From the IMG/VR virus record IMGVR_UViG_3300029986_000019, positions 1 through 61,690 of that record: a stretch of DNA of 61,690 nucleotides; one strand, 5' to 3'. Made by a program: the position numbers and the translations under genes. Source of the stretch: a virus. Taxonomy: Duplodnaviria > Caudoviricetes. Under the pieces are notes generated by a model that made no database searches, was not told where the DNA came from, and saw nothing but the letters and a program-made list of their open reading frames with translations. Positions 2,328 to 59,296 of the stretch are shown piece after piece. Each line of letters begins with the position of its first letter. Within the stretch, counting starts at the first letter, position 1.

Positions 2328-3216
2328 TATCCTCTACCTCCGTCGTAGTCTTTCCTGTGTTATTAGAGAAGTCTACATTACTGTATGATGGTCTTTTCAA
2401 CCCTACACTTTGTGTAGCTGCATTATTAATATCATTCCCAGAGAAATCACGCGGCTTTTCCTGAGATGCAGAAAAGATCCCCATAGTCTTTTCAACAGCA
2501 GCTAAACTCTGGGCTTGATCCCATCCTCTCTGGGATAGATATATGTACAAGTCATCTGCAAAATCTGCCATAGCCTGTAGCTTAACTATCTTAGGGTACT
2601 CATCACGTACAAACCTTTGAACATCAAAGGCTATGTCAAGCTGTTGTAACCGCGGTACTCGCTCTACGCCAATAATAGCGGCTTTTCGTACCCTGATGAG
2701 TTCTCCGGGCTTTGTGACGTCGTGTAGCTGTACTGTAGCACCATGATCTAATTCCTGTAGTGTGGCTAGTATCTCAGGTTTAAAACTTTCTTTCTCACAA
2801 CCAAAAACATTAGTCATGAACTTAACCATACTAAAGTATGTTTCATCTTTAGGGACTTCAGGCCGTTCAGTAACATGCAACAAACTATATAGCTGCTCAA
2901 ATACTAGATCCAAGTAGTTACGTAACTGGACCATATAGTCTGTCTGTCCAAGCGAGCCTTGTCGATCAGGCTTATTACACTCTAGTCTTTGTAGCAGAGC
3001 ATCAATAGCAAAGCATCTAGCCTTTGCACTGACTTCATGAGTTTGATCCTCATAGTAAGGATCAAACTTGGTGCTATCAAACTCTATAGTAGATGATGAT
3101 GGTGAAGGGTTTAGATCATAGTTCTCATATGAGTGCCTTAGATCCTTCTTAAACTGTTCAACATCAGTATCAATGTCAACTATAACCTCTAGGGCTATCT
3201 TTTTGTATTCTGTCAC
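2320..3216 (-). CDS. Hypothetical protein
   Basis: 298-aa ORF, tightly packed in the operon. Confidence 0.75.
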   Translation of the reverse strand: MTEYKKIALEVIVDIDTDVEQFKKDLRHSYENYDLNPSPSSSTIEFDSTKFDPYYEDQTHEVSAKARCFAIDALLQRLECNKPDRQGSLGQTDYMVQLRNYLDLVFEQLYSLLHVTERPEVPKDETYFSMVKFMTNVFGCEKESFKPEILATLQELDHGATVQLHDVTKPGELIRVRKAAIIGVERVPRLQQLDIAFDVQRFVRDEYPKIVKLQAMADFADDLYIYLSQRGWDQAQSLAAVEKTMGIFSASQEKPRDFSGNDINNAATQSVGLKRPSYSNVDFSNNTGKTTTEVEDIE

Positions 3217-3220
3217 GGAT

Positions 3221-3862
3221 CTAACCTCTTTTCTTTATGACGAAACGCTGTTTCTTTCTGGGAATGATTTTACTATCTACTACCGGTTTGTTAGCTAGTT
3301 CAAGCAACACATCGGCATGACAAAGTTTAGGTGCACAAAAGCACACTAAGTCTTTGCCGCGAAGTGGCTCTAACCAGTCAGGTTCATTCTTTAGCTTATT
3401 CTCTGCATAAACTCTAAACCTGGCAAGGACTAATTCTCTGTCTTCTTCTTTCTTTAGTGGATAGGGATTGCCCCATACACTAGGACGACCTACATACTGT
3501 GCGTTAGCAGGTTTAGTTTTATCATTCCTGTTCCATACTTTAGGTTTTGTTTTCAATGGCCTTAAAGGACTATCCTCTAGTGCTTCATCATAGCTCTTAT
3601 CCCAGAAAGCCTCTGCATTGATGTTGTCGATCAACAACAGTAAAGCATTGTAGAGCATGTTAAAGTTTATCTCACATGACTTGCTCATACCATGCCCATC
3701 ACTAACTTCAGCATGGAGATCGCCGAATATAGCTTGTAACCTTATAGTACAGTCATGTTCAGATACTATCCTAAAGTCTGGGCTATGGAACATAACTTCA
3801 GGATAACTATCCTTGATCTTCTGTGCTTGCTTCTCTGTTAACAAGCCTCTATGTGCCGTCAT
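3221..3862 (-). CDS. DUF4326-domain protein
   Basis: C-terminal YVGRPSVWGNPY...LRGKDLVCFCAPKLCHADVLLELAN signature. Start placed at the ATGA overlap (3862) with a GAGGAG RBS. Confidence 0.8.
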   Translation of the reverse strand: MTAHRGLLTEKQAQKIKDSYPEVMFHSPDFRIVSEHDCTIRLQAIFGDLHAEVSDGHGMSKSCEINFNMLYNALLLLIDNINAEAFWDKSYDEALEDSPLRPLKTKPKVWNRNDKTKPANAQYVGRPSVWGNPYPLKKEEDRELVLARFRVYAENKLKNEPDWLEPLRGKDLVCFCAPKLCHADVLLELANKPVVDSKIIPRKKQRFVIKKRG

Positions 3863-4338
3863 GTTGTAAACTCCTCTCGTATAGACTCTATACTTTTGAG
3901 TAGCCACTCTGCATCAGCAGGAACTTTGACGTAACTACTAAAGACATAGTAGTGGAGTAGAGGCAGTGTATTACGGATAAACTGTCTCTTCATCACTTTG
4001 TTGTTTTCGATCTTTATTCTGATCGCAGCCTTTATCTTGGCTTTAAACCTATGATCTTTCTTGATGTAGTATTTGTAGGTCTCATATCTAGGATCTTTAA
4101 ACTTACGTCCAGCCTTTTGTGCAGCTAAACCGTACATACCTCTCAATACTTCACGGTCTGGATGAGAAGTACCTAGCCAGTGCCAATACCCTTCGATACT
4201 CTCAAAGTGCCCATCAATAGGTAAGTCTATAGGAGTGTGTGCAAAGTTGGATAGGAACCTTCCTAACTCTGTTTTACCTATAGAGTACACGTTGACATGT
4301 TCTTTGCCATCTTTCCATTGGTTCGGTGGTGATGCCAT
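3859..4338 (-). CDS. Phage NADAR-like protein
   Basis: HVNVYS..TELGRFLSNFAHTP..GHFESIEGYWHWL and AQKAGRK resemble the NADAR/YbiA pattern LSNF..F.S.E.Y..AK..GR. Confidence 0.55.
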   Translation of the reverse strand: MASPPNQWKDGKEHVNVYSIGKTELGRFLSNFAHTPIDLPIDGHFESIEGYWHWLGTSHPDREVLRGMYGLAAQKAGRKFKDPRYETYKYYIKKDHRFKAKIKAAIRIKIENNKVMKRQFIRNTLPLLHYYVFSSYVKVPADAEWLLKSIESIREEFTT

Positions 4339-4342
4339 TGGA

Positions 4343-4618
4343 TTATACTAACCTTCCCACTACCATCAGATATACTGTTAGAAGTAGTACATACACTAGC
4401 CACTTAAGTATCTGAAAACCAAAACTAGAGTATTGACCTTGTAGATCACTGAACTCTAGTCCTTGATTGTGTGCTTTTTTCTGTAGTTGCTGCTGCCTAT
4501 CAACATAGTTTGTTGGGGCTAGAGGGTCTGGGTACCTTACAGTACACTCACAATCATTAACAGTGCAACCTTTGCTACAATGCCTTAGCATAGTATGTCC
4601 ACAATAACCACAGTTCAT
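4343..4618 (-). CDS. Small Cys-rich protein with C-terminal TM helix
   Basis: CGYCGH..HC..GC...CEC N-terminus; hydrophobic C-terminus. Confidence 0.65.
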   Translation of the reverse strand: MNCGYCGHTMLRHCSKGCTVNDCECTVRYPDPLAPTNYVDRQQQLQKKAHNQGLEFSDLQGQYSSFGFQILKWLVYVLLLTVYLMVVGRLV

Positions 4619-5115
4619 TACTTTAGTTCTCCTTTCTCAGTAAATACTTTACAGCCACACATTCCGTAGTCGTCACCTGCACCTAAACACTCACCATCAT
4701 TGCAAAGATGGTCGTCATGCCATGACTTAGGATGTCCACAAGTGCATTTAGGGTCAGATTTGAAGATTGGTTCACCATCCACAGGGTATTGATCGGGATC
4801 TATTCTATCCCAGTTAGTAGGCATTAGGTTGCTAGTAATAACCATACACTCTATACATACTTGACCCTTCCAATGAAACCCATCACCATAGTCTGTGTAG
4901 AGTATAGCATCAACTACTATTTGCCCATCACTCCTATGTGGACAATCTTTTACTAAATCCCATCCTGCTTGTTTTTCATCTTCAGTACGCCAATTGGCTT
5001 GAAGTTCCTCATTAGTTTTGTAAACTCTAGGTATGATTACATCGGATGTGCCATTCCATTCAAAGTAACCAAAGAGTTTACTATCTATGTAGACTTTACC
5101 CTGGGTATGCGACAC
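4618..5115 (-). CDS. Hypothetical Cys/His-rich protein
   Basis: 165 aa; CTCGH..H..C..C..CGC C-terminal motif; translationally coupled to neighbours. Confidence 0.7.
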   Translation of the reverse strand: MSHTQGKVYIDSKLFGYFEWNGTSDVIIPRVYKTNEELQANWRTEDEKQAGWDLVKDCPHRSDGQIVVDAILYTDYGDGFHWKGQVCIECMVITSNLMPTNWDRIDPDQYPVDGEPIFKSDPKCTCGHPKSWHDDHLCNDGECLGAGDDYGMCGCKVFTEKGELK

Positions 5116-5519
5116 TATGTTAACCTCGTTCTTTCTATCTTAACCGTGGGTATTGCACCCGTTTTTGCTGCTACTCGTTTCATGATCACATCCACTATGT
5201 CACGTCTACGTACGATCCATACTTCTCCAACAGGGAAGTCAGGATGACATGCAACGTTTAGTTTGTACTTTCTAGCACACCACTCAGCAGCATCTCTCAT
5301 GTCTGTGTTGACAACTATAAAGTCTGGATCAAGTACCTGTCTGGTAAACATGATTTTGAGTATCTTTACCACTAAAGTTTCTACATAGTCTATACGTGCT
5401 GCTTGATCAGCATATGTTTTGAGTTCAGATACTTCAGCGTTTAGGTCGGCTGTTTCCCCAAAGTACCGGTCAAGTTCTTTCTGGGAAAAGGTATCAAAGG
5501 GTTTCTGTCCACTATCCAT
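5115..5519 (-). CDS. Hypothetical protein
   Basis: 134 aa, GGAGG RBS. Confidence 0.7.
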   Translation of the reverse strand: MDSGQKPFDTFSQKELDRYFGETADLNAEVSELKTYADQAARIDYVETLVVKILKIMFTRQVLDPDFIVVNTDMRDAAEWCARKYKLNVACHPDFPVGEVWIVRRRDIVDVIMKRVAAKTGAIPTVKIERTRLT

Positions 5520-5522
5520 AGT

Positions 5523-5627
5523 TTAGGTTCCTCCAAAACAATAAACAATATAGGACACTAGCAATACAAGTAGTAGTACTCCTATAATACATCCGCATCC
5601 TTTGTTTAAACCGGGTTCGTTTGACAT
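5523..5627 (-). CDS. Small membrane peptide (not in ORF track)
   Basis: Manual translation MSNEPGLNKGCGCIIGVLLLVLLVSYIVYCFGGT fills the gap between neighbouring genes exactly. Confidence 0.6.
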   Translation of the reverse strand: MSNEPGLNKGCGCIIGVLLLVLLVSYIVYCFGGT

Positions 5628-5631
5628 TTAT

Positions 5632-6123
5632 TTAATACCTCATAGGTGTAAAGTGTATATTGAGTTTATGCTCAAAGGTAAGTAGTTCATTCCCAGAGAG
5701 ATTACCCGCACCACCAGCCCATTCAAGGATACACCATGCTAGACTTTTGTCTTCAGGTATTTGTGTGTGCTCATATGATAGTTCAGTGACAACATGAATT
5801 ATAGCTTGCCACTCATAATGTGTCCACACTACGTTAGGTTGTTCTTTACTATCATCATGCAATGCTATAGTAGAGGTTATAACAGCTACAACAGGGTTTC
5901 CACCCGCAGGAGTATCAGCAGGAGAACGATGTATACCATACCCTGTAAACCCTCCACCATTAGGTGTTTGGAAAAGAGTAAGATATCTCTTAACTCTTGT
6001 TTGCCCCTTCCTCTTAGTACTACCTCTATGGTATTTCCTATCAGCAGAGACTATAGGACGAACCATAGTTCTACATAGTGCTATATCGTTTAGCTCAAGA
6101 GTTCTCTCGTTTATCAATTGCAA
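5632..6123 (-). CDS. Hypothetical protein
   Basis: 163 aa, AAGGA RBS, within the operon. Confidence 0.65.
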   Translation of the reverse strand: MQLINERTLELNDIALCRTMVRPIVSADRKYHRGSTKRKGQTRVKRYLTLFQTPNGGGFTGYGIHRSPADTPAGGNPVVAVITSTIALHDDSKEQPNVVWTHYEWQAIIHVVTELSYEHTQIPEDKSLAWCILEWAGGAGNLSGNELLTFEHKLNIHFTPMRY

Positions 6124-6421
6124 TTCCTTTCAGAGTGGACGGGTCACGTTTACCATCTAGCGTGACTATAGTGTTTATTTTAATGGCTACCCAAGGATTA
6201 ACATACTTAGGTGTATTATCGCGGACAATACAATACCCATCAAACCCTGTACCATCCTTAATTCTACTTATTACTCCTTCTATGATAGTTGATGGTTGTT
6301 CATTATTAGAGTGTGCGGTAGAGGGCCTTCCACCGCCATACCTACGTTCAGCCCTAACCCTAGTACCATTAGTTACTAGTTTGTCTGCCCATTCTGACCG
6401 TTCTACTTTGCCCTTACTCAT
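6095..6421 (-). CDS. Hypothetical protein (possible SH3/KOW-like barrel)
   Basis: 108 aa; GTRVRAE...IEGVISRI pattern. Confidence 0.6.
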   Translation of the reverse strand: MSKGKVERSEWADKLVTNGTRVRAERRYGGGRPSTAHSNNEQPSTIIEGVISRIKDGTGFDGYCIVRDNTPKYVNPWVAIKINTIVTLDGKRDPSTLKGIAIDKRENS

Positions 6422-6429
6422 TTGTTTTC

Positions 6430-8652
6430 CTATCTGCTGTGAGACAGCATTGATCGACGTTTGATAACTCTAATCTTTAGTCTCTTACGAGAAGACATAA
6501 TGTGTTTGACTTGGTTTCCTTCTCTTACCAGTAGAGCCTCTTTCCAGAGAGCAACTAATTTTGATGTCACAAAGTATATATACGGTTTAACTCCTTGTAC
6601 TGTTGACTGTCCTTGTCTACGTTGTACTGCACCTAGTTCCATTAAGTCATCAAGTTGATCGAGCAGTGTGTTCTTATGTATATCACATTCTTCAGCAAGT
6701 TGAAGTATAGTCTGGTTAGGTTTAGCAATCAATGCTGCTACAGCTTCCATGTTAAACCCTACACAGCTATCAAGAGCTACACGAACAAGTACTCTATACT
6801 CTTCTTCACCTATTGATGGTGGTGAGTTCAACATACCTAAACCCATGATGACCTTCATAAACTGTATGCCAAGTCTGGTACCCATCTCTTTTTGTGGACG
6901 CCATCGGATTGCCCTATGGTTCCCGTCTCTGTTGAACTTGTCCCGGTCCACACTAGCCCTTAGTACTGCAACGATCTGGGCTAAAGAATTGATACGTTCA
7001 AAAAAGTGCTCCGGCACTGTATCTGCTATCTCATTAGGATCTACACTTACATCTAAAAAACGAGCTACCATATCAAGTAGTTCATCACTTATGACTTCTT
7101 TCTTAGCCCTACCTACTCCACGTATCGCAGAGTTTATAGGCTTATGTGCTTCAAAGTCATTGCCTTTAATAACATGAAGCATAAGAAATCTTTCACCTAA
7201 TGCAGCACTACGTTCACCATAGATTGCAGGTGTTACTCCGGTTACAATTGAGAAATGACTTTCATAATAGCGTTTAGCATTGTTAGCGTACTCTTGACCT
7301 ACAGTGCCGTCAAAAGCATCCCTCAATTGTCCAAACAGTTCATCCTTAACCATGACAGGCATTGTTAGACTTGGAGTAAAGTCTTTGATCATAATAGTCT
7401 TACCGTCTACTCTGGGAATGAGAGATGGATCTTCACCATTAGCAGCAATAAAACCTGATATCAATAGTTTAGGTGATAGTTTGGATATGTGGTGTGTTAC
7501 TCCTGACCTACCAGTAGAGAGTATGACCAACGTTTTTCCGCTTCCAGGTGGTCCTACTATATGGCACCATGCCGGAGGGCCGGGTATGAGCGTAGAGAGT
7601 ATAGTAGCATAACAAAGTTTTATTCCGTCTATGAGGTCGGGGGTTAAGTGTATACATGAGGCAAATTGTTCGAGGATGTCTGAGAACTTAGGGCGTAGCT
7701 TAGAGTTTATGTGGATGATATCTGCTGCTTCAGCATTTTGATTGGCCTTGTCATTAGGTGTAATGTATAGCTTAATCATCTCTGACAGCTCTGACATTGT
7801 TCCATCATCAACTACAAAGTCTCTAATATCGTGACCATCTTCACTATCAATAGGCCATGCTAGGTAGTGCAGTGAAGTAACTACTTTATGCACCATAGAG
7901 TTTACTCTCTCAGTACCTTGCTCACCTACTACACCTGCATCATAGCAACAGATAACATGATGGTCCTGAAAGTACTCTACCCATTTAGCTTTAAATATGT
8001 TGGCACCCGGAATACCTAACACTACATTACTAGCACTAGATACTCCATCACGTTCCATCATCCACTCTAGGGCTATTGCATCCCACTCCCCTTCTACGTT
8101 CCAAATCTTAGGTTTTTTCTGGCCCTTTTTTACGGGCTTTAAATTGTGCAGACCATAAATACCTGCTTCAACCCCGGTTAAGCCTCTTAAACGGAACTTG
8201 GTGCCGTTTCTAGGTACCCTGTAGTATCGGAGGTTAACTAGCTTTCCTTCCTGATTTCTGACTGGTATGTAAAATAAGTCACCATCAAAAACAATACCAG
8301 CATTCTTCAAGATCTGAACAGGAATACTACGGTCTGTAGCTAAACCCTGCCATGCCTTCTTGTAAGCAGGAAGTCTACTGTTAGTAGCTTCAGCTTGTTT
8401 CTCATACCATAGTTCCATAAAGGTGTAAAGATTACCATGCTTACCACACACTTTACAGTCCCATAGTTGAGACCTACCAGTGTCTTTATTGTAGTTTATA
8501 TATAGTTTGTTATGCCCTCCACAAAAGAGACAGTCCATAAACGCTTGATCGCCAACTCTACGACTGTCATCGTAATCCACTCCCAACTCTATGAATGGTG
8601 CAAGTTCCTTTGGTGATGTTTGTCTATCCGGCATTATATACCCTACTCCCAA
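6430..8652 (-). CDS. Primase-helicase (Zn finger + TOPRIM + AAA+/MCM-like ATPase + C-terminal winged helix)
   Basis: CLFC...WDCKVC; VEGEWDAIA, CCYDAG and GHDIRDF TOPRIM motifs; Walker A GPPGSGKT; LRDAFDG; ALGERFL; HTH TILQLAEECDIHKNTLLDQLDDLMELG. Confidence 0.85.
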   Translation of the reverse strand: MGVGYIMPDRQTSPKELAPFIELGVDYDDSRRVGDQAFMDCLFCGGHNKLYINYNKDTGRSQLWDCKVCGKHGNLYTFMELWYEKQAEATNSRLPAYKKAWQGLATDRSIPVQILKNAGIVFDGDLFYIPVRNQEGKLVNLRYYRVPRNGTKFRLRGLTGVEAGIYGLHNLKPVKKGQKKPKIWNVEGEWDAIALEWMMERDGVSSASNVVLGIPGANIFKAKWVEYFQDHHVICCYDAGVVGEQGTERVNSMVHKVVTSLHYLAWPIDSEDGHDIRDFVVDDGTMSELSEMIKLYITPNDKANQNAEAADIIHINSKLRPKFSDILEQFASCIHLTPDLIDGIKLCYATILSTLIPGPPAWCHIVGPPGSGKTLVILSTGRSGVTHHISKLSPKLLISGFIAANGEDPSLIPRVDGKTIMIKDFTPSLTMPVMVKDELFGQLRDAFDGTVGQEYANNAKRYYESHFSIVTGVTPAIYGERSAALGERFLMLHVIKGNDFEAHKPINSAIRGVGRAKKEVISDELLDMVARFLDVSVDPNEIADTVPEHFFERINSLAQIVAVLRASVDRDKFNRDGNHRAIRWRPQKEMGTRLGIQFMKVIMGLGMLNSPPSIGEEEYRVLVRVALDSCVGFNMEAVAALIAKPNQTILQLAEECDIHKNTLLDQLDDLMELGAVQRRQGQSTVQGVKPYIYFVTSKLVALWKEALLVREGNQVKHIMSSRKRLKIRVIKRRSMLSHSR

Positions 8653-9197
8653 ACCAATAAGTTTAGAGCCTCTTGTAACAACAAGAATATGGAACTTTCA
8701 TAGTCCCTATTTATTATCCCCGTAATGTTTAGAGTTCTAACTTGATTAATGACTATCCAATATGCAATTTCTTTAGGTGATACCCTACACTCAAACTCTC
8801 CATGCTCATCATCAGTGTACCATGTCTGTTCCATGTACACGTCAAGCAATGGTTTAATGTGTTGACCTTGATAAAGTTCACGGATTATTGATGCTTTATA
8901 GGAACTAAAGTCTATACCAAAGTAGATGGTAGCATCTGACTGTTCAAAGTTGTCTCTATAGTGTGACAGTCGATCTACTGAAGTACCCTTTAACCCATAC
9001 ATCCAACGATAACCCGGACAACACTTACCATTGACCATCATAAAGTCTTTGTAAGTATTACCACCTGTCTTTATTCCCAGAGAACGCGCAGCCTTTAGTG
9101 CTGCTATCTGTGCGCCTTCATCACCGCCGGAAATCACCCGCTGAAGGTGGTGCCGGTTTCTTCTGGGAATGATAGATCTACTAACCTTGAAGTTCAT
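8643..9197 (-). CDS. Circularly permuted YpsA/SLOG ('molybdenum carrier') family protein, diverged copy
   Basis: VISGGDEGAQIAALKAA..IKTGG..NFEQSDAT..TLNITG; paralog of 26062..26586. Start at 9197 has a GAGGA RBS. Confidence 0.7.
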   Translation of the reverse strand: MNFKVSRSIIPRRNRHHLQRVISGGDEGAQIAALKAARSLGIKTGGNTYKDFMMVNGKCCPGYRWMYGLKGTSVDRLSHYRDNFEQSDATIYFGIDFSSYKASIIRELYQGQHIKPLLDVYMEQTWYTDDEHGEFECRVSPKEIAYWIVINQVRTLNITGIINRDYESSIFLLLQEALNLLVWE

Positions 9198-9537
9198 TTC
9201 TATCCTCAAGAGTAGGCATAACCTTTAGATAGGGAAATACTTTAACAGTGCCAAGTATTTCTATTGTCTGTTTACTAGTTGAGATAAGATCATCTAAACC
9301 TTTAACCAATAGTTTAGGTTTTACATAACTCATATAACATACCTTAACTTTAACACTATAGGTACAGCGAGGATGGTTCACGAATGGATCATTGATGTTA
9401 TTCTCACCTTCACTCAATAGTTTACCATAAGAGCCAGTAGTGTACTGCATTAGGTTATCTATTTTTTTTATAGCCTCTACTTTAGAGTTAGCTTCTATCT
9501 CAACAATAGAACTGTTAATTGCAAATCTATATCGCAT
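9181..9537 (-). CDS. Hypothetical protein
   Basis: Start re-placed at MRYRF (AAGGA RBS), just after the polA stop. Confidence 0.6.
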   Translation of the reverse strand: MRYRFAINSSIVEIEANSKVEAIKKIDNLMQYTTGSYGKLLSEGENNINDPFVNHPRCTYSVKVKVCYMSYVKPKLLVKGLDDLISTSKQTIEILGTVKVFPYLKVMPTLEDRNELQG

Positions 9538-9548
9538 TGGTCTATCCT

Positions 9549-12029
9549 TTATTCCTTTGGTATTAGAAGTCCACTGTCTGTCAATTTGAAATGTCGCTCT
9601 GCAACACTCCATTGATGGTCTATCACATCAACACCTACTGGCATCTTAACGTTTAGCCTTCCATCATTACTTTCCATACGATCTACTATAGACGCTATGA
9701 ATGGTGCAGTAACCAGCTTCTTAGGTGCTTCAACGTACAATGCGTCGTGTATAGTTAAGAGTACTTGTGCATCTGTGTTTGATCTTTCAAGGAAGTCATC
9801 AACTTTGATTAGACTATCCTTCATCATACCAGCAGCACTACCCTGTATCATGTAGCTAACACCACGATACGCAAAGTTACGATCTACCCTTAACTTACGA
9901 TCATACAGAGTTATAATGAAACCATCTTTCTCTGCCTTCTTCGTAAGTTCACGCATGTAGACTTTCATCTCAGGCATGGACGCATTATAGTCTGCATCGA
10001 ACTGTTTAGCTTCGTCTAGAGTACACATTAATAAGTGTGCATAAGAACCAGGTCCGCCACCAAAGATTTTAGCATATGTGATATGTTTACATCGTTGACG
10101 ACTAGCTTCCTTACCTAGAGTATGCTCTGCCTGAATAATGTTGTAATTATTCTCTGCTAACCACTCTTGAACTATACTGTAGATGGTAGGATTATCAGGT
10201 CTATACTTTGCTGCTTTACGTGCAGACCATTCTATCTTCTTCCAGTAGTTGCCAACAGCAGAACCAGAACCCCCACAATGTTCACATATATACCCTAGTT
10301 TGTCTTCTCCATCGCCATTACACTTGTCACAGTTAGATGGACTATCACGGAACAACTCTAGGGCTATGATACCTGCTCTAATGCTATCAGGGTTATCTCT
10401 ACCACCCCATGCCTTCTGTGCCATCTCTTCAAAGATATCACGATCATACTTTAGAGCATCTAGCATCAACGTGATACCGGCTAACTCTGCGAAGATCCTA
10501 CCTTCTTGCTGTGAGAAGTCAAACGCTAACCATACATAACCCTCTCTAGGACCAAATACTTTTTGGCTAGAGTATTTACCACCACCTAGAGACTTTTTAC
10601 CTCCGGCAGTAGCTTGTTGAGGGTTAAAGCCCATTTCACCGCCAGCACTAAAGCGACTAGTCTTTGTACCACATTGGTTAAGGCTAAAGTGTACGACCCA
10701 ATCACCGCCTTTATAGGTGTCGTGCTTTATGTCACCTTTACCGTACTCCCATGGTGTACGTTTGATTATCTCTTTCTCATCACCAAGTATAGGATCAAAG
10801 AATAAACTCTTAGTATGACTTGCACTACGGTACCCAACTAACTCTTTCACAAAAGGGATATACATTAGCTCTTTAAGAGCATCCTTTTCGGTAGTCAGTC
10901 TTGCAGTGCCATCCTCTATACTCTGTGGTGTTCCTTTGTACTTTCCTTTACGTGGGTAATGTGGTTCAATGTTTAGTGTACCTGGGCCACCTTCACCTTC
11001 AGGACCATACATTATTGCTATAAGCTGCTTAGTGCTGCCGGGGCTAAACTCTTGGGCTTTTACCTTTGTTCTACTTACCCGACCTGTAGGCGTAAGTTTA
11101 GGTTCGGGTGGTCCTTCTGGGAATGGATTTAATTTAAGTTCATCAATAATCTGTTCCATAGCTGCTTTATGTTCAGCCATAGCCTCTATACATTTATTGC
11201 TTTCTTCTCTAGCGAGTTCCGGAAAGATCCTTAACCCTCGCTTTTCCATTCTGTTGACTATAGGCCATACTTGACGCATCTCAAGTTCATAGGCTCTACG
11301 TAAATAACCACCCTGTTCCATCTCATCAAACATTACACGTTCATAGTGCCTGTATAGCAGCATGGTTCGGAAACCATCACGTATACAGTAGTTTTTATTT
11401 ATCCCTTCCCAGTGCTCAACGCCGTGATGTTTAGCCATATAAGCAGGTAGCCAGTAATCCTCTTTATAGTTCTCCCCAAGAACGATTAGAGGCATACCTT
11501 CTTTAGCAGCTAGAGTATTGTATCGTCCTGCCATAGTCCTAGCTTGCTTTACAATGTCTGCTAGTTCTTTTTCATCGCTATCATCAACACCTAGCCTTCG
11601 AGCTAAAGGCTTAAGGCCATAGGTGAGTTCCAGTGTGAAGCAAACTCTAGCCATAAACAAAGTGTCTTCAATGGACTTAGCCAGAGCCACAACGTCTATA
11701 CCTACAGTGAGCAACAGCATTATAACGTCAAACTTGCTGTTATGAAAGACTACACGTTTACCTTTAATGGTATCACGTATAAACTTTACATCTCTTTGAT
11801 TAATTTGAGGAATTCTAGTGTGTGGGTTGACTTCCCATTCGCAATAAAATGAGTTACCCTTCTCATCACACATGGTAACAGAGAATACAGCATCTTGTAC
11901 TAACACTCCTTTAAGAAGTCGCTTACCCCACACTGCGACCCCGCAAGTTTCTACGTCCAATGATACAGTATGTTGTGGGTTAAAAAGAGGATATTCTTTA
12001 GAGACAGGTTTCTTTAGCAAGAAACGCAT
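9549..12029 (-). CDS. polA: Family A DNA polymerase with 3'-5' exonuclease
   Basis: Exo motifs LDVET, FHNSKFD and YCIRD; motif A FDFSQQEGR; motif B RQRCKHITYAKIFG; IQGSAA; motif C IHDAL. Confidence 0.93.
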   Translation of the reverse strand: MRFLLKKPVSKEYPLFNPQHTVSLDVETCGVAVWGKRLLKGVLVQDAVFSVTMCDEKGNSFYCEWEVNPHTRIPQINQRDVKFIRDTIKGKRVVFHNSKFDVIMLLLTVGIDVVALAKSIEDTLFMARVCFTLELTYGLKPLARRLGVDDSDEKELADIVKQARTMAGRYNTLAAKEGMPLIVLGENYKEDYWLPAYMAKHHGVEHWEGINKNYCIRDGFRTMLLYRHYERVMFDEMEQGGYLRRAYELEMRQVWPIVNRMEKRGLRIFPELAREESNKCIEAMAEHKAAMEQIIDELKLNPFPEGPPEPKLTPTGRVSRTKVKAQEFSPGSTKQLIAIMYGPEGEGGPGTLNIEPHYPRKGKYKGTPQSIEDGTARLTTEKDALKELMYIPFVKELVGYRSASHTKSLFFDPILGDEKEIIKRTPWEYGKGDIKHDTYKGGDWVVHFSLNQCGTKTSRFSAGGEMGFNPQQATAGGKKSLGGGKYSSQKVFGPREGYVWLAFDFSQQEGRIFAELAGITLMLDALKYDRDIFEEMAQKAWGGRDNPDSIRAGIIALELFRDSPSNCDKCNGDGEDKLGYICEHCGGSGSAVGNYWKKIEWSARKAAKYRPDNPTIYSIVQEWLAENNYNIIQAEHTLGKEASRQRCKHITYAKIFGGGPGSYAHLLMCTLDEAKQFDADYNASMPEMKVYMRELTKKAEKDGFIITLYDRKLRVDRNFAYRGVSYMIQGSAAGMMKDSLIKVDDFLERSNTDAQVLLTIHDALYVEAPKKLVTAPFIASIVDRMESNDGRLNVKMPVGVDVIDHQWSVAERHFKLTDSGLLIPKE

Positions 12030-12059
12030 TTAAATCACTCCCAGAGAAACAACTACAGT

Positions 12060-12299
12060 CTAGACTGTAGACTCTACACTAGATGTCAGAGAAACAGACT
12101 GATCATCAGTTATGATCTTATACATTCTCTTACCAGTGCTTTTACTACTTCTAACTCCATGCTTATTGGTGGCTATATTAGCTGCTTTTAACATCCTTCT
12201 TACAGTCTCAACACAACAACCTAAACTATTGGCTGTCTTAAGTAGAGATCCTTCAGACCTATACATTTGCTCTAGTTGCGTTCTTGTTATTTCTTTCAT
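12060..12299 (-). CDS. Small helix-turn-helix protein
   Basis: LEQMY..EGSLLKTANSLGCCVETVRRMLKAANI HTH pattern; AAGGAG RBS. Confidence 0.7.
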   Translation of the reverse strand: MKEITRTQLEQMYRSEGSLLKTANSLGCCVETVRRMLKAANIATNKHGVRSSKSTGKRMYKIITDDQSVSLTSSVESTV

Positions 12300-12387
12300 A
12301 GTTTTCTCCTTAAAATAAACAACTATAGCCTGTAGGTTTCTTGTTAGGGAAATCCTACAGGCTTGTTTGGCACGTCCATTGCTGAAA

Positions 12388-13464: not shown

Positions 13465-13496
13465 TGTGTTTTCTTATCCCTTTCTGTGGATAGAGT

Positions 13497-14231: not shown

Positions 14232-14246
14232 TGTGGTGCTCCGCGG

Positions 14247-14283
14247 CCAAAAAAGACAGGGCCAGCGTTTAGCCAGCCCTGCC
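14247..14283 (-). terminator. Intrinsic terminator after the SSB-like gene
   Basis: Minus strand GGCAGGGCTGGC-TAAAC-GCTGGCCCTGTC-TTTTTT. Confidence 0.75.
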
Positions 14284-18622: not shown

Positions 18623-18625
18623 TTA

Positions 18626-48821: not shown

Positions 48822-49106
48822 TTATGTTGTACTCCCTTCTGCACTAAGTAGGTTGTTGTATCTGATAATAGAGTTTGTCACAAAATAGGAATGTGCCGCG
48901 TCTATATCTTTCTGCGAGATTGCCGCGAGTTTTTCTCTCTGGGAATGATCCCATACTGTAGGTAAGCCTTTAGCTTTCGGTTTACTAGACCGCTTTTGAA
49001 TAAGGCTTCTTTTTGTTAGCTGTAGTTGAGGCTTTATTGCCGTTAACGTTTGTTGGTCCTGTTTTTGTTTTTCCTCTGCTAGCGGAAGGTGTTGGGTTAA
49101 TAACAT
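48822..49106 (-). CDS. Hypothetical protein overlapping the portal 3' end
   Basis: ATG with an AAGGA RBS inside the portal gene; LAAISQKDIDAA motif. Confidence 0.55.
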   Translation of the reverse strand: MLLTQHLPLAEEKQKQDQQTLTAIKPQLQLTKRSLIQKRSSKPKAKGLPTVWDHSQREKLAAISQKDIDAAHSYFVTNSIIRYNNLLSAEGSTT

Positions 49107-50649: not shown

Positions 50650-52330
50650 AGTAGTCTACCTCTATAAAATCATTATCATCTAGGATCTCAGCCAGAGTAT
50701 AGCCCTGAGAGTTTCTTTCTCTCATGTCCATATCTTCTCCACTAAACCCTACAGTGTCAAAGTCCTCTCCGGGTAGTTCATCAATTTCTAGCGCAATCTC
50801 TGAGAACGCATCAGCACTAGCGTCTACTTGGTCCTTCTTAGTATTAGGACCGCCGGGAAATACCCTTAACTCTTCGATGTATGGAGGTATCCAAGATACG
50901 TATTCTCCGTCTTCACCTTTCTCAAGTACATCTTCCCCAGTAAACACTAGCCTTACTAGTCCTGCATTTACGTAGTTAGAATATGGATCGGCTCTAGTTG
51001 GTTTGTCTTCATTAGGCACATGCTTGAAGATGATAATGAAACCTTTAAGAAGCTTTCTAAACATTACAGCTTGATCTTTACCAGCCCCACCTGGGTCAAT
51101 AGCAAACCTAATGTTTACGTTCTTATATTTTCTTCTGTCTTCTTTAGCAGCGTAACGTATCTTTTTGTTTCTAAGATCCGTGTTATCTCTAAACCTTAGT
51201 ACATCAATGATATACACATAGTCGTCATCACCCAGTCCCATTAAGACACCTACAGTCCAGTCACCATCTTCTGTAGAAGCTATATCCCATGCTCTACAGT
51301 ATTTGATGATAGTGACGCCCATAGGTATCTTCTTGATAACCCTTAGAGATTTGATAGAGAAGAAGTTGCCTTCTTCTTTAGATGGCTTTCCTTGGAACTG
51401 TGAGAGCCATACAGCGGGGTTTCGCTTCATTTCGCGATAATACCCGGCTTGTCGTGATTTTCTGGGAGAGAGGTATTCACCTATCTTCCGTTTCATAGGG
51501 TCTGGACCACCGACTTCCATGCGTTCGTCGCCGTCCCACTCTGCCCTATAGGATACAAGTTCCCAAACTCCACCGTGGTACTGTAGACCCTCTTCTCTAA
51601 TAAGCTGCCCTACAAAATCGTCATCGTCATATCTGTGAAACATAACTATAACGTTTGCATTATCATCAATACGAACCTTAGCACCTTTAGCCCAGAAATC
51701 CCAAACGTTTTTACGTATCAATGCAGAAGCTGCTTGTTGTGGACTAGCGTATGGGTCGTCAATAATTAAATGGTCTGCACCACGACCAACGAACCCTGTT
51801 TGTAACCCTAGAGCTATTAGTGACCATTGGCTGTCATTGTATTTACGTCTAGCTACTGTAGAGAACTTTTCATCTGAGCATTTTGTAGGTATCCTAGTGT
51901 CTGCTTCCGGAAACATCTCTTTGTAGTCAGCACCTTGCATGATGACTTTATTGACACCAGTAAACTCTCTAGAGTGATCAATGTTATAACCAGCTAGCGC
52001 AACTCTTGTAGTAGGGTCATCACCTATTAGGTAAGAGGGTAAACGCTGTGATACTACAATAGATCCTCCGTGCTGTGGTGGTTTGTGTATAAGTACTCTT
52101 TGGCCTTTTTGGTGGGTAAGTTTTTCTAGCCGTCGGCACATGTGGTTTTGCCAAGGCTCTAGGATTAACTTGGAGGTTTCTTCTACATAAGTAGAAAGAG
52201 GTAAACGACGTGGTGTATGTCGAGTTCCTGCAACATTTGTATCTGGACTTAACTGTGTGGTTAACTCTCTAATGGCTGTTTCTAGTAGAGTATCTCCATC
52301 CATTAGATCGAGCATCCTACTGTATGCCAT
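50495..52330 (-). CDS. terL: Terminase large subunit
   Basis: PPQHGGS (Walker A position), GRGADHLIIDDPY, RAWDIAS..GDWTVG, KDQVDASADAF nuclease motif. Confidence 0.92.
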   Translation of the reverse strand: MAYSRMLDLMDGDTLLETAIRELTTQLSPDTNVAGTRHTPRRLPLSTYVEETSKLILEPWQNHMCRRLEKLTHQKGQRVLIHKPPQHGGSIVVSQRLPSYLIGDDPTTRVALAGYNIDHSREFTGVNKVIMQGADYKEMFPEADTRIPTKCSDEKFSTVARRKYNDSQWSLIALGLQTGFVGRGADHLIIDDPYASPQQAASALIRKNVWDFWAKGAKVRIDDNANVIVMFHRYDDDDFVGQLIREEGLQYHGGVWELVSYRAEWDGDERMEVGGPDPMKRKIGEYLSPRKSRQAGYYREMKRNPAVWLSQFQGKPSKEEGNFFSIKSLRVIKKIPMGVTIIKYCRAWDIASTEDGDWTVGVLMGLGDDDYVYIIDVLRFRDNTDLRNKKIRYAAKEDRRKYKNVNIRFAIDPGGAGKDQAVMFRKLLKGFIIIFKHVPNEDKPTRADPYSNYVNAGLVRLVFTGEDVLEKGEDGEYVSWIPPYIEELRVFPGGPNTKKDQVDASADAFSEIALEIDELPGEDFDTVGFSGEDMDMRERNSQGYTLAEILDDNDFIEVDYYGNPEDFDGQTYSYNTKIETARSFKPRTRREKKDVGKAPNKRYRYKRAANG

Positions 52331-52817: not shown

Positions 52818-53162
52818 TTACTCTTCATTCTGCCCATTGTCTTCAGTACCGGGCTTAGGTTTAGTATACGGTTCCTCAACTTTAGGTACCGTAAAGGTTG
52901 CTTCATCTACATCTTCTATTCTAAAGTGCGTGATAGAGATGTTCACTGATGCGTGACGTTCTAGTAGGTCACTCTGGCTATCTTTACCTGAATGACCGTA
53001 GGCTGTAACGTCTACACCTGTATTACCCCAAGACTGATCCTTAGATAGTTCTGAGATAATACAGTATTTAGCATTTTCCTGTTGTGCTTGATAACTAGGC
53101 ATAGCAAGTATCTGTGCGAGCACAGCAAGACGCGGACCTTTCGAGCGAATTGACCAAGACAT
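52818..53162 (-). CDS. Hypothetical protein
   Basis: 114 aa; MSWS..V.VTAYGH..ASVNIS. Confidence 0.65.
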   Translation of the reverse strand: MSWSIRSKGPRLAVLAQILAMPSYQAQQENAKYCIISELSKDQSWGNTGVDVTAYGHSGKDSQSDLLERHASVNISITHFRIEDVDEATFTVPKVEEPYTKPKPGTEDNGQNEE

Positions 53163-53228
53163 TGTGGTGGCCCTTTCTCTGGGAGTAAATTATGCTAGCC
53201 TCTTGGTTAGAAGAGGCTAGACTTGTGT

Positions 53229-53977: not shown

Positions 53978-55156
53978 CTAATCATCTTCCAGTTCTATTG
54001 GTTCTGATTGTTTTGATTGTGCTGCTAGTCTAGCGTTTATAATAGCATTAGCCCTGTTTAGTTGACCTGCTTTAGCACTAGAGGCTGCACTGGGTTTAGG
54101 GTGATCACTAACAGGTAATGGTGGAGGGCTAATGGCTACAACACTTTTCTCTCTGCTATCACTTGAAGTACCTATGATGCTGTCTCTAGGTTTACTAATA
54201 AGACTACTCAAGCCTGTAGCTACATTAGATAGGAAGTCCATCTTCAGTGATACATCAATACCTGTCACTTTAAACTCTTCTAACAAGAGTTTAGCATCAG
54301 GTGTTAATCCTGCTTGATCCCTTTTGATGAGAATGTACTTCTCATTAACAGCGTTCATGAAATAACCTATACACTCTTTACATGTAGCTGCTATTCCAGT
54401 AATCAAAGCCATGGCTTGATCGGCTTTAATCATTGTCTTAAGATCACGTTCACGGTGGTGTGCAGTGTCTACAAGTCGTCTACGCTGTTCTGTAGCAATG
54501 TCTATCTGTTTCCATGTATGTTCTTGGTTTATGCCTTTACGATAGACATCCACTAACACCTTTAGAAAGTCTTCTGTTATTTCCCCATCGTCTGTTAACT
54601 TATCAGCCAAGCTAGTGATTAGGTTGTTTAGTTTCTTTCTAGTGTTGTAGTCTACATCAAAGCCTAGACCTTCCTTCAAAGTGTTGATACGTACATCTTG
54701 AAGGGCTATCTCATGGTTTAGGGATAGTAGGTCTGGATCATTTAATGCTCGTTGAAAGTCTGACTTCAAGTGTGAAGGCATACTCTCTGATGTTCTTAGG
54801 TGAGTAGCTCTAGGGTGTAGTGATCCTGTTAGTGCTTTACCCCCGTGCCTAAAACATCTGCCATTATCCATTATAGCCATAGACTGGCATCTAGCATTTT
54901 CTTGTGTTACAGGGTCTATTACGCCGGGGCGTCTAGAGTAGCATATAGGTTGTTGTTCATCATTGTAAGCAAAAACCCTTTTTCCATCTTCAGTGTAGGC
55001 CACAGGTGCATCACGTAGTTGTTTATCATTACGTTTGATGTACAATTTACCTATCTGTGCAGGTGTAATGTCTCGCTCTATTAGATGTTTACGTCTTCCG
55101 GGCGGAGCGTTCATATCCTTTAGTTGTTGTGGAGTGTAATTTCTTAGTGTTGCCAT
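53978..55156 (-). CDS. terS: Probable terminase small subunit (HGGxSTG-type)
   Basis: C..RC...NGRCFRHGGKALTG zinc/HGG motif, LSL..EIAL coiled coil; upstream of terL. Confidence 0.65.
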   Translation of the reverse strand: MATLRNYTPQQLKDMNAPPGRRKHLIERDITPAQIGKLYIKRNDKQLRDAPVAYTEDGKRVFAYNDEQQPICYSRRPGVIDPVTQENARCQSMAIMDNGRCFRHGGKALTGSLHPRATHLRTSESMPSHLKSDFQRALNDPDLLSLNHEIALQDVRINTLKEGLGFDVDYNTRKKLNNLITSLADKLTDDGEITEDFLKVLVDVYRKGINQEHTWKQIDIATEQRRRLVDTAHHRERDLKTMIKADQAMALITGIAATCKECIGYFMNAVNEKYILIKRDQAGLTPDAKLLLEEFKVTGIDVSLKMDFLSNVATGLSSLISKPRDSIIGTSSDSREKSVVAISPPPLPVSDHPKPSAASSAKAGQLNRANAIINARLAAQSKQSEPIELEDD

Positions 55157-55426
55157 AGTGTTTAGATCCTTTTCGAGCAGGGCGACCGTCCTAATCGCCC
55201 TTACTCGCAGGGTATAGGGGACACTTCCATAAAGTTAAGGCCCGTAACTTCCTAGACTTCAGGCAATCAACGCTCTATACCCTGTGTACGACAACAGCCA
55301 CCACCACTGTTGCCGCACATTATAGCAGAGCCAGCCTCTACTACGCTATCCATCTAGACTTCTCTTCGAGGTTTGGCTCTACAGTTTAGTGGAATGGCCC
55401 ACATTTTTCTCTGGGAATGATTTATA

Positions 55427-56023
55427 CTAGTAACCACTCACAGGATAACTAAAGTCTGTGTTAGATAGTAGTGGTCCTAGTACTACTACTAGATCACAAT
55501 GTTCCTCAAACCACGATGCAGTGATGTGTTCTTCGCCGGGTCCATGTCCACCATAACTCTCAACGCTATGGTCATGAGTATCCATCCAAACGTGTCCAGT
55601 GTTGTCACCACCACGACCATTAGGGTAGTGGAAGCATACTCTCAGCAAGTTGTAGCTAGGGTCTGTAGGTGAGATTGTTGCAGCATCGTTATACTGTTGG
55701 CTGGAATTGATTACGTGGTGCTTAAACCCTTGATCTATAAGCCATTGTGCTTGAGTGTATGAACCGTCTGGTAGTCCTGCACTCTGAAGTATACCATGAG
55801 TAGAGTAGTCTGCTAGTGTACGGAACCATCCTGAACAGTCTATCCCAGAGAAACCTATGGTGCCAGACCCAAGGTTAGGGTCTTTACCTCCAAAAACATA
55901 TCCTACATGAGCATCGTAAGCTTTTTGTTTGAAATTGGCAAACTCCATAAGGTCTATAGGTACATAGGTGAAACCTGCAAGCAATCCTGTGATAGCTTTC
56001 TTCAATGGTGTTTGAGTAGACAT
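55427..56023 (-). CDS. NlpC/P60 cysteine peptidase, probable endolysin
   Basis: YVFGGK..IDCSGW..GHVW..VESYGG catalytic Cys/His. Confidence 0.75.
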   Translation of the reverse strand: MSTQTPLKKAITGLLAGFTYVPIDLMEFANFKQKAYDAHVGYVFGGKDPNLGSGTIGFSGIDCSGWFRTLADYSTHGILQSAGLPDGSYTQAQWLIDQGFKHHVINSSQQYNDAATISPTDPSYNLLRVCFHYPNGRGGDNTGHVWMDTHDHSVESYGGHGPGEEHITASWFEEHCDLVVVLGPLLSNTDFSYPVSGY

Positions 56024-58371: not shown

Positions 58372-58403
58372 CAAAAAAAAAGACTGTACCGAAGTACAGT
58401 CTA
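58372..58403 (-). terminator. Intrinsic terminator
   Basis: Minus strand AGACTGTAC-TTCG-GTACAGTCT followed by a T run. Confidence 0.9.
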
Positions 58404-58430
58404 ATCTCTATTTTCGTCTCTCTCAAAAAT

Positions 58431-58682
58431 CTACGCGGAAATCTCTACTAAGTCCCTTTTCAATCCAGTAGGGACCATGTACATACCTACTACCCCATTG
58501 TACTGACTAAACCATATCCCATTGTTCCTATGCAGACCATTCAGTTCGTAGACAAGCATTTTAGCTTGCTTAAGTCTAGTTACCTCCGCCAGTTTAGATC
58601 CATCAGGATTGAAAACGTTCCATGTTCTCACTTTCCCGCCTAGTGTCCGATACCCTACTGCCCATGTGTACTCTGATTTCAT
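58431..58682 (-). CDS. Hypothetical early protein
   Basis: 83 aa, upstream RBS-like sequence, followed by a terminator. Confidence 0.65.
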   Translation of the reverse strand: MKSEYTWAVGYRTLGGKVRTWNVFNPDGSKLAEVTRLKQAKMLVYELNGLHRNNGIWFSQYNGVVGMYMVPTGLKRDLVEISA

Positions 58683-58828
58683 AATTCTATACCTTTCCTT
58701 AGAACCAATACTTACGTGGTTGCATTATCCAGACTAGCAAACACACTATTGCCAGTATGCATAGCATCCTAATTAGACACTCTGCTATGCTACCTGAAAG
58801 TAACCATTCCAACATTGCATTCACCACA

Positions 58829-59062
58829 TCAGTTACCTCCCGAAAACCGAACAATACTAGTGATGTCAACTTGCACATCAGATTGATACCCTTTAGCTGT
58901 ATTCACTACAAACTGTTCTGTAATATCACTTTCACGAAGTACCAATGCTACACTATAGTCTATTTGCGCTATGCAAGTAAATCTATCCGTATAACATTGG
59001 CTCATGTGATTGTAAAACGACTGAGCACATGTTACATGTGCAAACGTAAACTTTATAGTCAT
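58829..59062 (-). CDS. Hypothetical early protein
   Basis: 77 aa, downstream of the promoter at 59164-59193. Confidence 0.55.
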   Translation of the reverse strand: MTIKFTFAHVTCAQSFYNHMSQCYTDRFTCIAQIDYSVALVLRESDITEQFVVNTAKGYQSDVQVDITSIVRFSGGN

Positions 59063-59163
59063 TTTGTTACCTTTGTTTCCTGCGGTTCTGAGCCGCTAAA
59101 TTGTCAATGTGGCAGAATACCGGTTCAATACTGGTGTAGCTCGTCTATGCAAGCTACACGGTC

Positions 59164-59193
59164 ATTCTAACACCATTCCACAATCTTTGTCAA
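59164..59193 (-). promoter_or_regulatory. sigma70-type promoter
   Basis: TTGACA-18 nt-TAGAAT with an extended TG. Confidence 0.75.
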
Positions 59194-59296
59194 GTCCACT
59201 TGGCGAACTATCCGAACATCCGCAAAAATGGCGGATATTTTTCTGGGAATGAATTATATGGTCCGCGTCCGATTGCGACCGGTCTATAGTTCAGAC

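Follow-up and report, generated by a model that had tools for sequence, protein, structure and literature searches.

The IMG/VR virus record IMGVR_UViG_3300029986_000019 (Caudoviricetes), 61,690 bp long and analysed here over its entire length (hereafter the window), represents a complete 61.7-kb lytic siphovirus, with a CheckV completeness of 100% and no end repeats. Its long open reading frames (ORFs) lie nearly all on the minus strand. Family searches identified a large terminase (TerL), an SPP1-type portal, a tape measure protein, a tail module resembling that of gene transfer agents (GTA-like), a family A DNA polymerase (PolA), an SNF2 helicase, a Sak4-type annealase and an exonuclease (Table 1); the terminase and portal belong to headful-type families. 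Dispersed through these genes and the gaps between them is an asymmetric word built around TCTGGGA. This word is real, conserved across a phage family, evenly spaced and strand-specific.

The dispersed word in the window

TCTGGGA occurs 42 times in the window (29 copies on the plus strand, 13 on the minus strand), against 6.25 +/- 2.43 (maximum 13) in 100 dinucleotide shuffles, and the 15-mer motif with at most three mismatches occurs 39 times, with 5.5 +/- 2.3 expected. TCTGGGA and its extensions are the most over-represented k-mers of the genome. Coding copies numbered 22 on one strand and 12 on the other, compared with 4.1 +/- 1.9 and 3.8 +/- 1.9 in 200 synonymous-codon shuffles, an in-gene excess of 3-5 fold in both orientations. 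All three reading frames are used by the copies, again in both orientations. The coding excess over synonymous shuffles and the use of every frame indicate a DNA-level signal that protein sequence does not explain.

These results bear out most of a sequence-only reading of the same DNA, which had described an over-represented polar motif independent of the encoded proteins. All 32 copies that it listed are present: the 21 plus-strand copies and nine of the 11 reversed ones are exact TCTGGGA matches, within 1 nt, and the two other reversed copies carry TCTGGG followed by T or C, at 27437 (originally written as 27447) and 37884. The proposed excess holds against both the dinucleotide and the codon-preserving null.

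The position matrix of the motif reads as a T-rich stretch, (C/T), TCTGGGA, A/G, T, G/A, A, and then an A/T stretch. A meta-plot oriented by the motif revealed enrichment of CG and CCG/CGG from -50 to -1 (z up to +6.8), which agrees with the one-sided CG-rich flank proposed earlier, and an A/T block at +10 to +19 (GC 0.28 versus 0.41, z -6.7). The same flank had also been called CTAG-poor, a depletion that did not reach significance (|z| <= 1.8). In the window, 22% of copies have a CCG that ends 2-10 nt upstream of TCTGG, versus 4.2% of random places.

Folding of the flank gave a minimum free energy at or below -10 for 38% of copies versus 13% of random 46-mers, with a hairpin present at some copies only. 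A hairpin as a universal part of the element was rejected, the mean z of the flank against its own shuffles being -0.47 and the extra stability mostly GC content. No Rfam family was matched at any motif copy.

Conservation, turnover and per-strand spacing

To place the word in an evolutionary context, we retrieved relatives of the window (G000) with a TerL alignment, obtaining three complete, collinear and independent genomes: G001 (61.7 kb, GC 54%), G002 (68.1 kb, GC 38%) and G003 (63.9 kb, GC 36%). A further fragment, G004, is 99.997% identical to G001 and was left out of the counts. The TerL proteins of the three relatives are 50-60% identical, and 36, 29 and 32 of the 81 model ORFs of the window have matches in G001, G002 and G003, respectively, at a median identity of ~40%. 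A metagenome scan returned the same three large contigs and fragments. Among deposited phages, a near-identity search gave no match to the window, tblastn with TerL and PolA gave distant matches only (~30% identity or less), and single-protein locus searches for relatives gave no match; no prophage relatives were found in the cellular genomes searched.

The top-ranked 8-mer holds CTCTGG in each of the four genomes (CTCTGGGA, TCTCTGGG, TCTCTGGT and TTCCAGAG, the last being the reverse complement of CTCTGGAA). When the core was mutated in silico and the counts of the four genomes were pooled, TTCTCTGG was observed 90 times with 12.6 expected; any single substitution at core positions 2-8 lowered the ratio to 0.3-1.4, and only position 1 takes C. 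The shared core is thus YTCTCTGG, a strict 8 bp. Its 3' tail differs by lineage (GAATGA, GAAGAG, TAGAAGAA and AAGAGAA). Beyond the family, pooling 60 unrelated viral loci gave the core 7-mers a ratio of 1.22, small and more distant TerL loci showed no clear core excess, and the exact 14-mer gave single chance matches only, among the matches listed for viral and genome collections.

A second box, GGTT(Y)CCCG, was resolved in G002 and G003. It is clearest in G002, where the element is bipartite and spans ~30 bp: GGTT(Y)CCCG, a few pyrimidines, TCTCTGG and TAGAAGAAT. This bipartite form is found within genes too, in both orientations. The box in the relatives, together with the CCG upstream of TCTGG in the window, identifies the CG-rich flank as a degenerate second box (GGTnnCCG), which is part of the element in a subset of copies. 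The flank had earlier been taken for DNA protected or selected by an occupant of the site; in G002 and G003 it is instead the second box of the element itself. Collectively, these features describe a DNA-level recognition word shared by the lytic siphovirus family, with a strict core, a lineage-specific purine-rich 3' tail and a 5' box in a subset.

Each genome carries 38-51 copies, or one per 1.3-1.6 kb, divided between the plus and minus strands as 26:17, 24:14, 27:18 and 26:25 in G000-G003, that is, ~60:40 in three genomes and ~50:50 in G003. A counterpart in the same orientation within 4 residues exists for five of 19 coding sites of the window in G001, two of 20 in G002 and one of 22 in G003 (null 0.2-0.5), and the sole site common to all four genomes sits on a conserved peptide. 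Density has therefore been maintained while positions have mostly turned over between lineages.

Between 70% and 80% of copies lie inside genes, and 40-50% are reversed. Intergenic sequence is enriched 1.4-2 fold in all four genomes, significantly in three. Inside genes the two orientations stand at 70:57 (p 0.29), and between genes at 32:18 (p 0.065); in G000 and G002 the sense orientation has a stop codon in one frame, which by itself would bias the ratio. No orientation flip along the genome was detected in G000-G002, and G003 showed only a weak trend. Copies fall within 80 nt upstream of start codons in 24 of 102 cases (p 1.5e-5) and 14 of 75 (p 0.008), versus 9.2% expected, in both orientations. 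Roughly 70% (71 of 102 and 54 of 75) lie at least 150 nt from any start. Both motif strands bear purine runs placed as a Shine-Dalgarno sequence would be, and the excess near starts is probably a by-product of these runs.

Taken strand by strand, the copies are regularly placed. The template-strand sets (opposite to the genes) have coefficients of variation (CV) of 0.65, 0.46, 0.58 and 0.68 in G000-G003 (P = 0.008, 0.0003, 0.0013 and 0.017) and a mean gap of 1.9-2.3 kb; the per-strand mean gap overall is 1.9-4.2 kb. The coding-strand sets of G000 (CV 0.61, P = 0.025) and G001 (CV 0.25, P = 0.0003) are also even. Fisher's combined P is 1e-9 under a loose site definition and 1e-8 under a strict one, and 5424 control sets of hexamers with about as many copies average a CV of 0.98, 2.5% of them being no higher than 0.65. 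When the strands are merged the CV is 0.72-0.89, and the per-strand CV is lower in six of eight sets under the same strict definition. The regularity is thus a property of each strand and suggests that reading is strand-specific.

Close same-strand pairs are depleted (2 versus 6.4) and divergent pairs enriched (7 versus 3.05, P = 0.03); at 10 places in the four genomes, opposed copies stand only 17-50 bp apart. Of the polar site every ~2 kb proposed in the sequence-only reading, the asymmetry and, for the template-strand sets, the even spacing hold in all four lineages, and the polarity relative to genes is weak. Limited literature searches revealed no description, for a phage, of per-strand even spacing on the scale of Okazaki fragments, and searches with the motif strings returned primer matches only.

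Table 1. Copies of the 15-nt motif and other features of the window (copies are TCTGGGA matches unless stated; genes lie on the minus strand)
Feature	Coordinates	Strand	Context
Copy TTTCTCTGGGAATGA	2432-2446	-	within ORF 2320-3216
Copy, weak tail	2525-2539	+	within ORF 2320-3216
Copy	3253-3267	+	36 nt before stop of ORF 3221-3907; next start ~40 nt downstream
Copy, weak tail	3596-3610	-	within ORF 3221-3907
Copy	5476-5490	+	within ORF 5115-5519
Copy	5687-5701	-	within ORF 5632-6123
Primase-helicase (candidate reader)	6430-8652	-	740 residues, four modules
Copy	7407-7421	+	within primase-helicase gene
Copy	9071-9085	-	within ORF 8643-9209
Copy	9158-9172	+	near 5' end of ORF 8643-9209; hairpin on T-rich side
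PolA	9549-12029	-	family searches
Copy	11112-11126	+	within PolA gene
Copy, intergenic, sense-oriented	12035-12049	-	10 nt upstream of PolA start codon; purine tail Shine-Dalgarno-like
Copy, weak	12430-12444	+	within ORF 12388-13464
Copy	13106-13120	-	within ORF 12388-13464
Copy	14001-14015	+	within ORF 13497-14231
Copy	15308-15322	+	within ORF 14320-15945
Copy	15944-15958	+	abuts start of ORF 14320-15945
Sak4-type annealase	17024-17944	-	family searches
Rfam tRNA match	17998-18112	-	in ORF-free gap 17945-18373
38-bp direct repeat, first copy	18307-18344	+	in gap beside tRNA-like element
Exonuclease	18626-19723	-	family searches
Copy, left of divergent pair	19454-19468	-	partner at 19503
Copy, right of divergent pair	19503-19517	+	partner at 19454
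Copy	19931-19945	+	within ORF 19898-20248
Copy	22325-22339	+	in ORF 21776-22441; position common to G001 and G002
SNF2 helicase	22441-24042	-	family searches
Copy	23234-23248	-	within SNF2 helicase gene
Winged-helix/zinc-finger protein (candidate reader)	24455-25291	-	winged-helix lead at residues ~35-130; two CxxCxGxG zinc-finger units
Copy	24737-24751	+	within winged-helix/zinc-finger gene, at conserved peptide S-x-P-E-K/N; position common to G002 and G003 directly, to G001 through them
38-bp direct repeat, second copy	26710-26747	+	at 5' end of cpYpsA gene 26062-26757
Copy, intergenic, convergent pair	27399-27413	+	11 nt upstream of ORF 26979-27389 start
Palindrome TATGATATTATATCATA	27414-27431		between convergent copies
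Copy TTTCTCTGGGTATGA, convergent partner	27432-27446	-	pair flanks palindrome; not exact TCTGGGA
Copy	31481-31495	+	within ORF 31278-31751
Copy	32409-32423	-	within ORF 31751-32959
Copy	32539-32553	-	in ORF 31751-32959; position common to G001
Copy	33485-33499	+	within ORF 32971-33657
Tape measure	33671-39088	-	family searches
Copy	35246-35260	+	within tape measure gene
Copy	36606-36620	+	within tape measure gene
TCTGGGA without T-rich head	37280-37294	+	weak; possibly chance
Copy TTTCTCTGGGCGATA	37879-37893	-	listed in the sequence-only reading; not exact TCTGGGA
Copy, intergenic, perfect	39944-39958	+	between stop of ORF 39959-40954 and start of ORF 39322-39885
Copy, sense-oriented	40972-40986	-	just upstream of ORF 39959-40954 start
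TCTGGGA without T-rich head	41845-41859	+	weak; possibly chance
Copy	44415-44429	+	in ORF 44211-45050; position common to G001
Copy	44741-44755	-	within ORF 44211-45050
Copy, intergenic, perfect	45476-45490	+	31 nt upstream of ORF 45072-45446 start; hairpin on T-rich side
Copy	48934-48948	+	between portal gene and ORF 48177-48818
Portal, SPP1-type	48985-50649	-	family searches
TerL	50495-52330	-	family searches
Copy	51457-51471	+	within TerL gene
Copy, intergenic	53174-53188	+	13 nt upstream of ORF 52818-53162 start
Structured ORF-free stretch	55157-55426		between ORFs 55427-56023 and 53978-55156
Copy, intergenic, perfect	55406-55420	+	head of structured gap 55157-55426
Copy	55839-55853	-	within ORF 55427-56023
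Copy, intergenic, perfect	59238-59252	+	downstream of canonical terminator; hairpin on T-rich side

Candidate readers and possible functions

Two phage proteins emerged as candidate readers of the word. The primase-helicase combines a Zn-ribbon (CxxC...CxxC, residues 41-72), a TOPRIM domain, a Walker A motif (GPPGSGKT, residue 367) and a C-terminal winged helix (residues ~636-697), and matches the PHROG family 'DNA primase' at E 1.8e-17. Its orthologues in G001 and G002 score 29.6 and 26.2 bits for Toprim_2 (cut-off 22.1). The Zn-ribbon is present in all four lineages and Walker A in three, and the C-terminal winged helix-turn-helix (HTH) is matched in all four, each time below the Pfam cut-off. 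The putative recognition helix of this winged HTH is conserved in all four lineages, which parallels the conserved core of the word.

The second candidate, the multi-module winged-helix/zinc-finger protein, is likewise kept in all four lineages. Across the analysis, atlas and PDB searches gave weak leads only. Three possible binders had been named in the sequence-only reading, namely this protein, the HTH at 12060 and a host protein; the primase-helicase was not among them. The zinc-finger units and winged-helix lead speak for the first, no family was matched by the ORF at 12060, and genome scans gave no support for a host reader. A complete scan of 185,579 species for the G002 17-mer found one occurrence each in 16 unrelated genomes, and the G000 17-mer showed single occurrences only, among the matches listed for the same collection. 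In 26 genomes sampled from one phylum, Bacillota, the core reached at most ~3x a reversed-word control and at most ~1 per 12 kb. No cellular genome represented in these scans was found to be dense in the word.

Searches for known regulatory families were also negative. Integrase and Cro/C1-type HTH domains (PF00589, PF00239 and PF01381, covering tyrosine and serine integrases) were found in none of the four genomes, consistent with the earlier remark that no repressor/integrase pair is evident. Pfam and PHROGs scans covered 50 of the 60 model ORFs that had yet to be searched, and among these no repressor, sigma factor, RNA polymerase or nickase family was detected; ParB was not searched separately.

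A word that is kept at constant density, even on each strand, present on both strands, indifferent to transcription and conserved by lineage is what would be expected of a site read by a machine on single strands. Our best single explanation, inferred with a probability of roughly 35%, is that the phage primase-helicase preferentially primes or loads at these copies. The word would be read by a phage-encoded machine tracking along single strands in replication or recombination, most likely the phage's own primase-helicase. The CTG inside the invariant core would be the template trinucleotide of the primase, a purine primer (5'-AGAGAAA) would be copied from the pyrimidine run on its 5' side, and the tail and 5' box may raise affinity. 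The invariant core does contain CTG after a pyrimidine run, compatible with the trinucleotide feature of primase sites; the phage encodes a primase with a Zn-ribbon and TOPRIM, and copies occur on both strands at Okazaki-scale spacing. A bolder and slightly more doubtful form of this proposal is that the family hard-codes its lagging-strand starts, the 8-bp core and its context forming a primase-helicase 'super-site' about every 2 kb per strand.

CTG is the recognition trinucleotide of E. coli DnaG, whose primers start with pppAG; by that rule the motif template would yield AGAGAAA. G4-type initiation signals combine hairpins with a CTG start, and known primase cores are, to our knowledge, trinucleotides that are neither over-represented nor evenly placed in their genomes. 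The element described here differs in its 8 bp plus up to ~30 bp of context, in being the top over-represented word and in the extra winged helix on the primase. Passages of PMC8599759 describe binding by DnaG-type primases to a template trinucleotide with a cryptic 3' base, use by E. coli DnaG of ~3% of its sites with fragments starting every 1.5-2 kb, and T7 fragments of 1-6 kb; whether a longer recognition sequence selects start sites is treated there as an open question. Flanks alter T7 primase binding up to 10-fold, as the abstract of PMC6136900 reports. Per-strand gaps of ~2 kb fit the scale of these Okazaki fragments. In the aspects that these excerpts cover, the likeness to DnaG and T7 gp4 primase sites and G4-type signals extends to single-strand reading, asymmetry, a short obligatory core with a cryptic 3' base, flank-tuned affinity and effective starts 1-6 kb apart, and the Zn-ribbon/TOPRIM primase is phage-encoded here.

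Several points weigh against priming. The TOPRIM match in the primase-helicase of the window is weak (E 0.013), as are its PDB profile matches to DnaG (E 0.03 and 0.22), and the winged helix suggests duplex (origin-type) binding, not template recognition. We are aware of no primase requiring a site of 8-30 bp. Were the motif strand the template, forks would meet transcription head-on at the slightly more frequent orientation. The coding-strand sets of G002 and G003 are not even (P = 0.50 and 0.19). Priming predicts neither the 2-2.6 fold excess upstream of start codons nor the TATAAT-like hexamers beside five of eight antisense-oriented intergenic copies in the window.

The first alternative is that the copies bind a phage DNA-binding regulator, such as the winged-helix/zinc-finger protein, which would control expression at many sites, as a roadblock to elongation, a temporal regulator or a translational operator, in a stoperator-like system without lysogeny. 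We regard this as unlikely, but it draws on the enrichment of copies upstream of starts and between genes and on a multi-module binder candidate conserved in all four lineages. The best matches of the window are intergenic, seven of nine in one orientation, and some intergenic positions recur upstream of orthologous tail genes. Such a regulator accounts for the copies near starts, which may themselves be a Shine-Dalgarno-like by-product, and not for the per-strand regularity; even spacing and positional turnover are unexpected of operators, most copies lie far from any start, and the in-gene orientation is close to balanced.

The comparison with stoperators of Cluster A mycobacteriophages (L5, Bxb1) points both ways. 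As passages of PMC6550527 describe them, these are dozens of asymmetric sites of at least 13 bp across a siphovirus genome encoding a family A polymerase, with motifs similar but not identical between related genomes, and the lineage-specific tails seen here resemble such cognate differences. Stoperators lie mostly in one orientation relative to transcription and serve repressor immunity together with an integrase or parABS (PMC6550527). Here the asymmetric copies are likewise many, whereas their orientation is nearly unbiased, no integrase or Cro/C1-type HTH was found in the four complete genomes and no PHROG repressor among the ORFs scanned, and no prophage relatives were found.

Less probable still is a Chi-like word that attenuates or redirects an end-entering helicase-nuclease, either host RecBCD/AddAB or the phage SNF2 helicase with the exonuclease, and that would protect permuted, headful-packaged genomes from either end. 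The terminase and portal families are compatible with such packaging. The strict 8-mer core with every substitution penalised, the over-representation in and between genes on both strands, the even spacing and the positional turnover make up statistics that are the profile of Chi. More generally, Chi, KOPS and uptake sequences have strict short cores, exceed expectation in coding and non-coding DNA, are kept at constant density and are evenly spread, as is the word here. The Chi-like account thus fits the statistics, but not the long context, in which information reaches well past the 8 bp and changes from lineage to lineage. Chi, KOPS and uptake words also belong to the cell, whereas the word here varies with the phage lineage, was not found to be dense in the cellular genomes scanned and shows no orientation flip along G000-G002.

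We consider it slightly less probable again that packaged DNA carries sequence-specific single-strand nicks at the copies, like that of T5, phiKMV-like phages and phage tf. Known interruption sites have a conserved, asymmetric, dispersed consensus of 7-19 bp shared within a phage group, at 4-14 or more per genome, with no known function (PMC3517423). The word shares this short, asymmetric, group-conserved form, and its spacing is strand-specific. Nick sites described so far are confined to one strand: all 14 nicks and all 17 consensus-like sites of tf share a strand, and those of phiKMV-like phages are on the non-coding strand (PMC3517423), whereas both strands carry copies here. Nicking at both members of the closely opposed pairs would nearly break the duplex, and no nickase family was detected among the ORFs scanned.

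Phage-specific promoters, or conserved transcript-start or leader elements, are very improbable. Their appeal lies in the gene-strand order at intergenic copies of the window: hairpin or terminator, TATAAT-like hexamer (at five of eight antisense-oriented copies), 3-4 nt, TCCCAGARAAA, Shine-Dalgarno sequence and ATG. The TATAAT-like hexamer is not conserved in relatives, sigma-70-type sites are not enriched (42 versus 47 +/- 8) and none coincides with a motif copy, and no phage RNA polymerase or sigma factor was found among the ORFs scanned. Of the copies, 70-80% lie in genes and 40-50% point the wrong way. Canonical promoters were rejected. An equally remote account, that the word has no function and spread by biased gene conversion or templated mutation between copies, or is a residue of codon or peptide bias, would suit the concerted-looking tail shared within each lineage, the encoded Sak4-type annealase and exonuclease and the few shared sites at conserved peptides, but the excess survives synonymous-codon shuffles, the same strict core spans lineages of 36-54% GC and ~40% protein identity, and drift or conversion would not produce even spacing on each strand.

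On the features tested, the word thus does not fit stoperators, one-strand nick sites or promoters, nor probably uptake sequences, and by the same measure it falls outside the known phage classes. The uncultivated phages of the family that share it seem to be strictly lytic. Chi, KOPS, uptake sequences, stoperators, nick sites and other dispersed oriented words have each brought to light machinery that reads DNA in a directional manner. If the copies are priming sites of the primase-helicase, this would be the first genome known with dedicated, evenly spaced priming signals, and would offer a natural test of how primases select a few per cent of possible start sites. Why primases ignore most trinucleotide sites, raised as an open question in PMC8599759, would then become directly testable. 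Should the word instead mark nicks, roadblocks or nuclease attenuation on both strands, those classes would be extended.

Other features of the genome

Four sequencing runs (contigs) aligned to positions 2001-22000 of the window matched it exactly, showing neither variants nor joints at motif copies; the 24 runs listed, none of them RNA, are peat metagenomes stored as contigs, a form of data uninformative on molecule ends, nicks, transcript starts and constraint.

The palindrome between the two convergent copies lies at the boundary of the tail module and the next gene block and may be regulatory or origin-like. No iteron array was found in the window. In G001, a tandem array with an 18-bp period and units ~88-95% identical occupies 21119-21364 (L249:1119-1364), just past the PolA gene; an iteron-type origin and a coding repeat are both possible readings, and the window has none such.

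Base composition is unusual in two respects. CpG is depleted genome-wide in the window (observed/expected 0.50) and in G002 and G003 (0.57-0.59), with a value of 1.03 in G001. CTAG is in excess in the window (1.83), although this tetranucleotide is commonly avoided in bacteria and their phages.

The Rfam tRNA match scores 49.5 bits (E 1.3e-7) and covers 115 nt for a 71-position model, which implies ~44 nt of inserted or intronic sequence; no tRNA was called by ARAGORN anywhere in the window. The two copies of the 38-bp direct repeat differ by one mismatch and lie 8.4 kb apart. The ORF-free stretch of ~270 nt upstream of position 55,427 folds at -108.7 kcal/mol over 290 nt on the gene strand; no Rfam family was matched there, and it may be a structured leader or non-coding RNA.

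The window also encodes two paralogous cpYpsA/SLOG proteins (8643-9209, 26062-26757), one DUF4326 protein (3221-3907) and one UDG-superfamily protein (20254-21027). In G003 a DUF4326 domain is fused to the orthologue of the winged-helix/zinc-finger protein (L398). For viral SLOG and DUF4326 domains, passages of PMC9503650 predict NAD/ADP-ribose counter-defence roles, and the idea that the motif is tied to the cpYpsA/SLOG, DUF4326 and UDG genes was dropped.

A second word family in excess, TAAA(C/G)TCTA(G) with its complement, is present on both strands of the window; TAAACTCT, for example, has 24 and 19 copies versus 2.2 expected.

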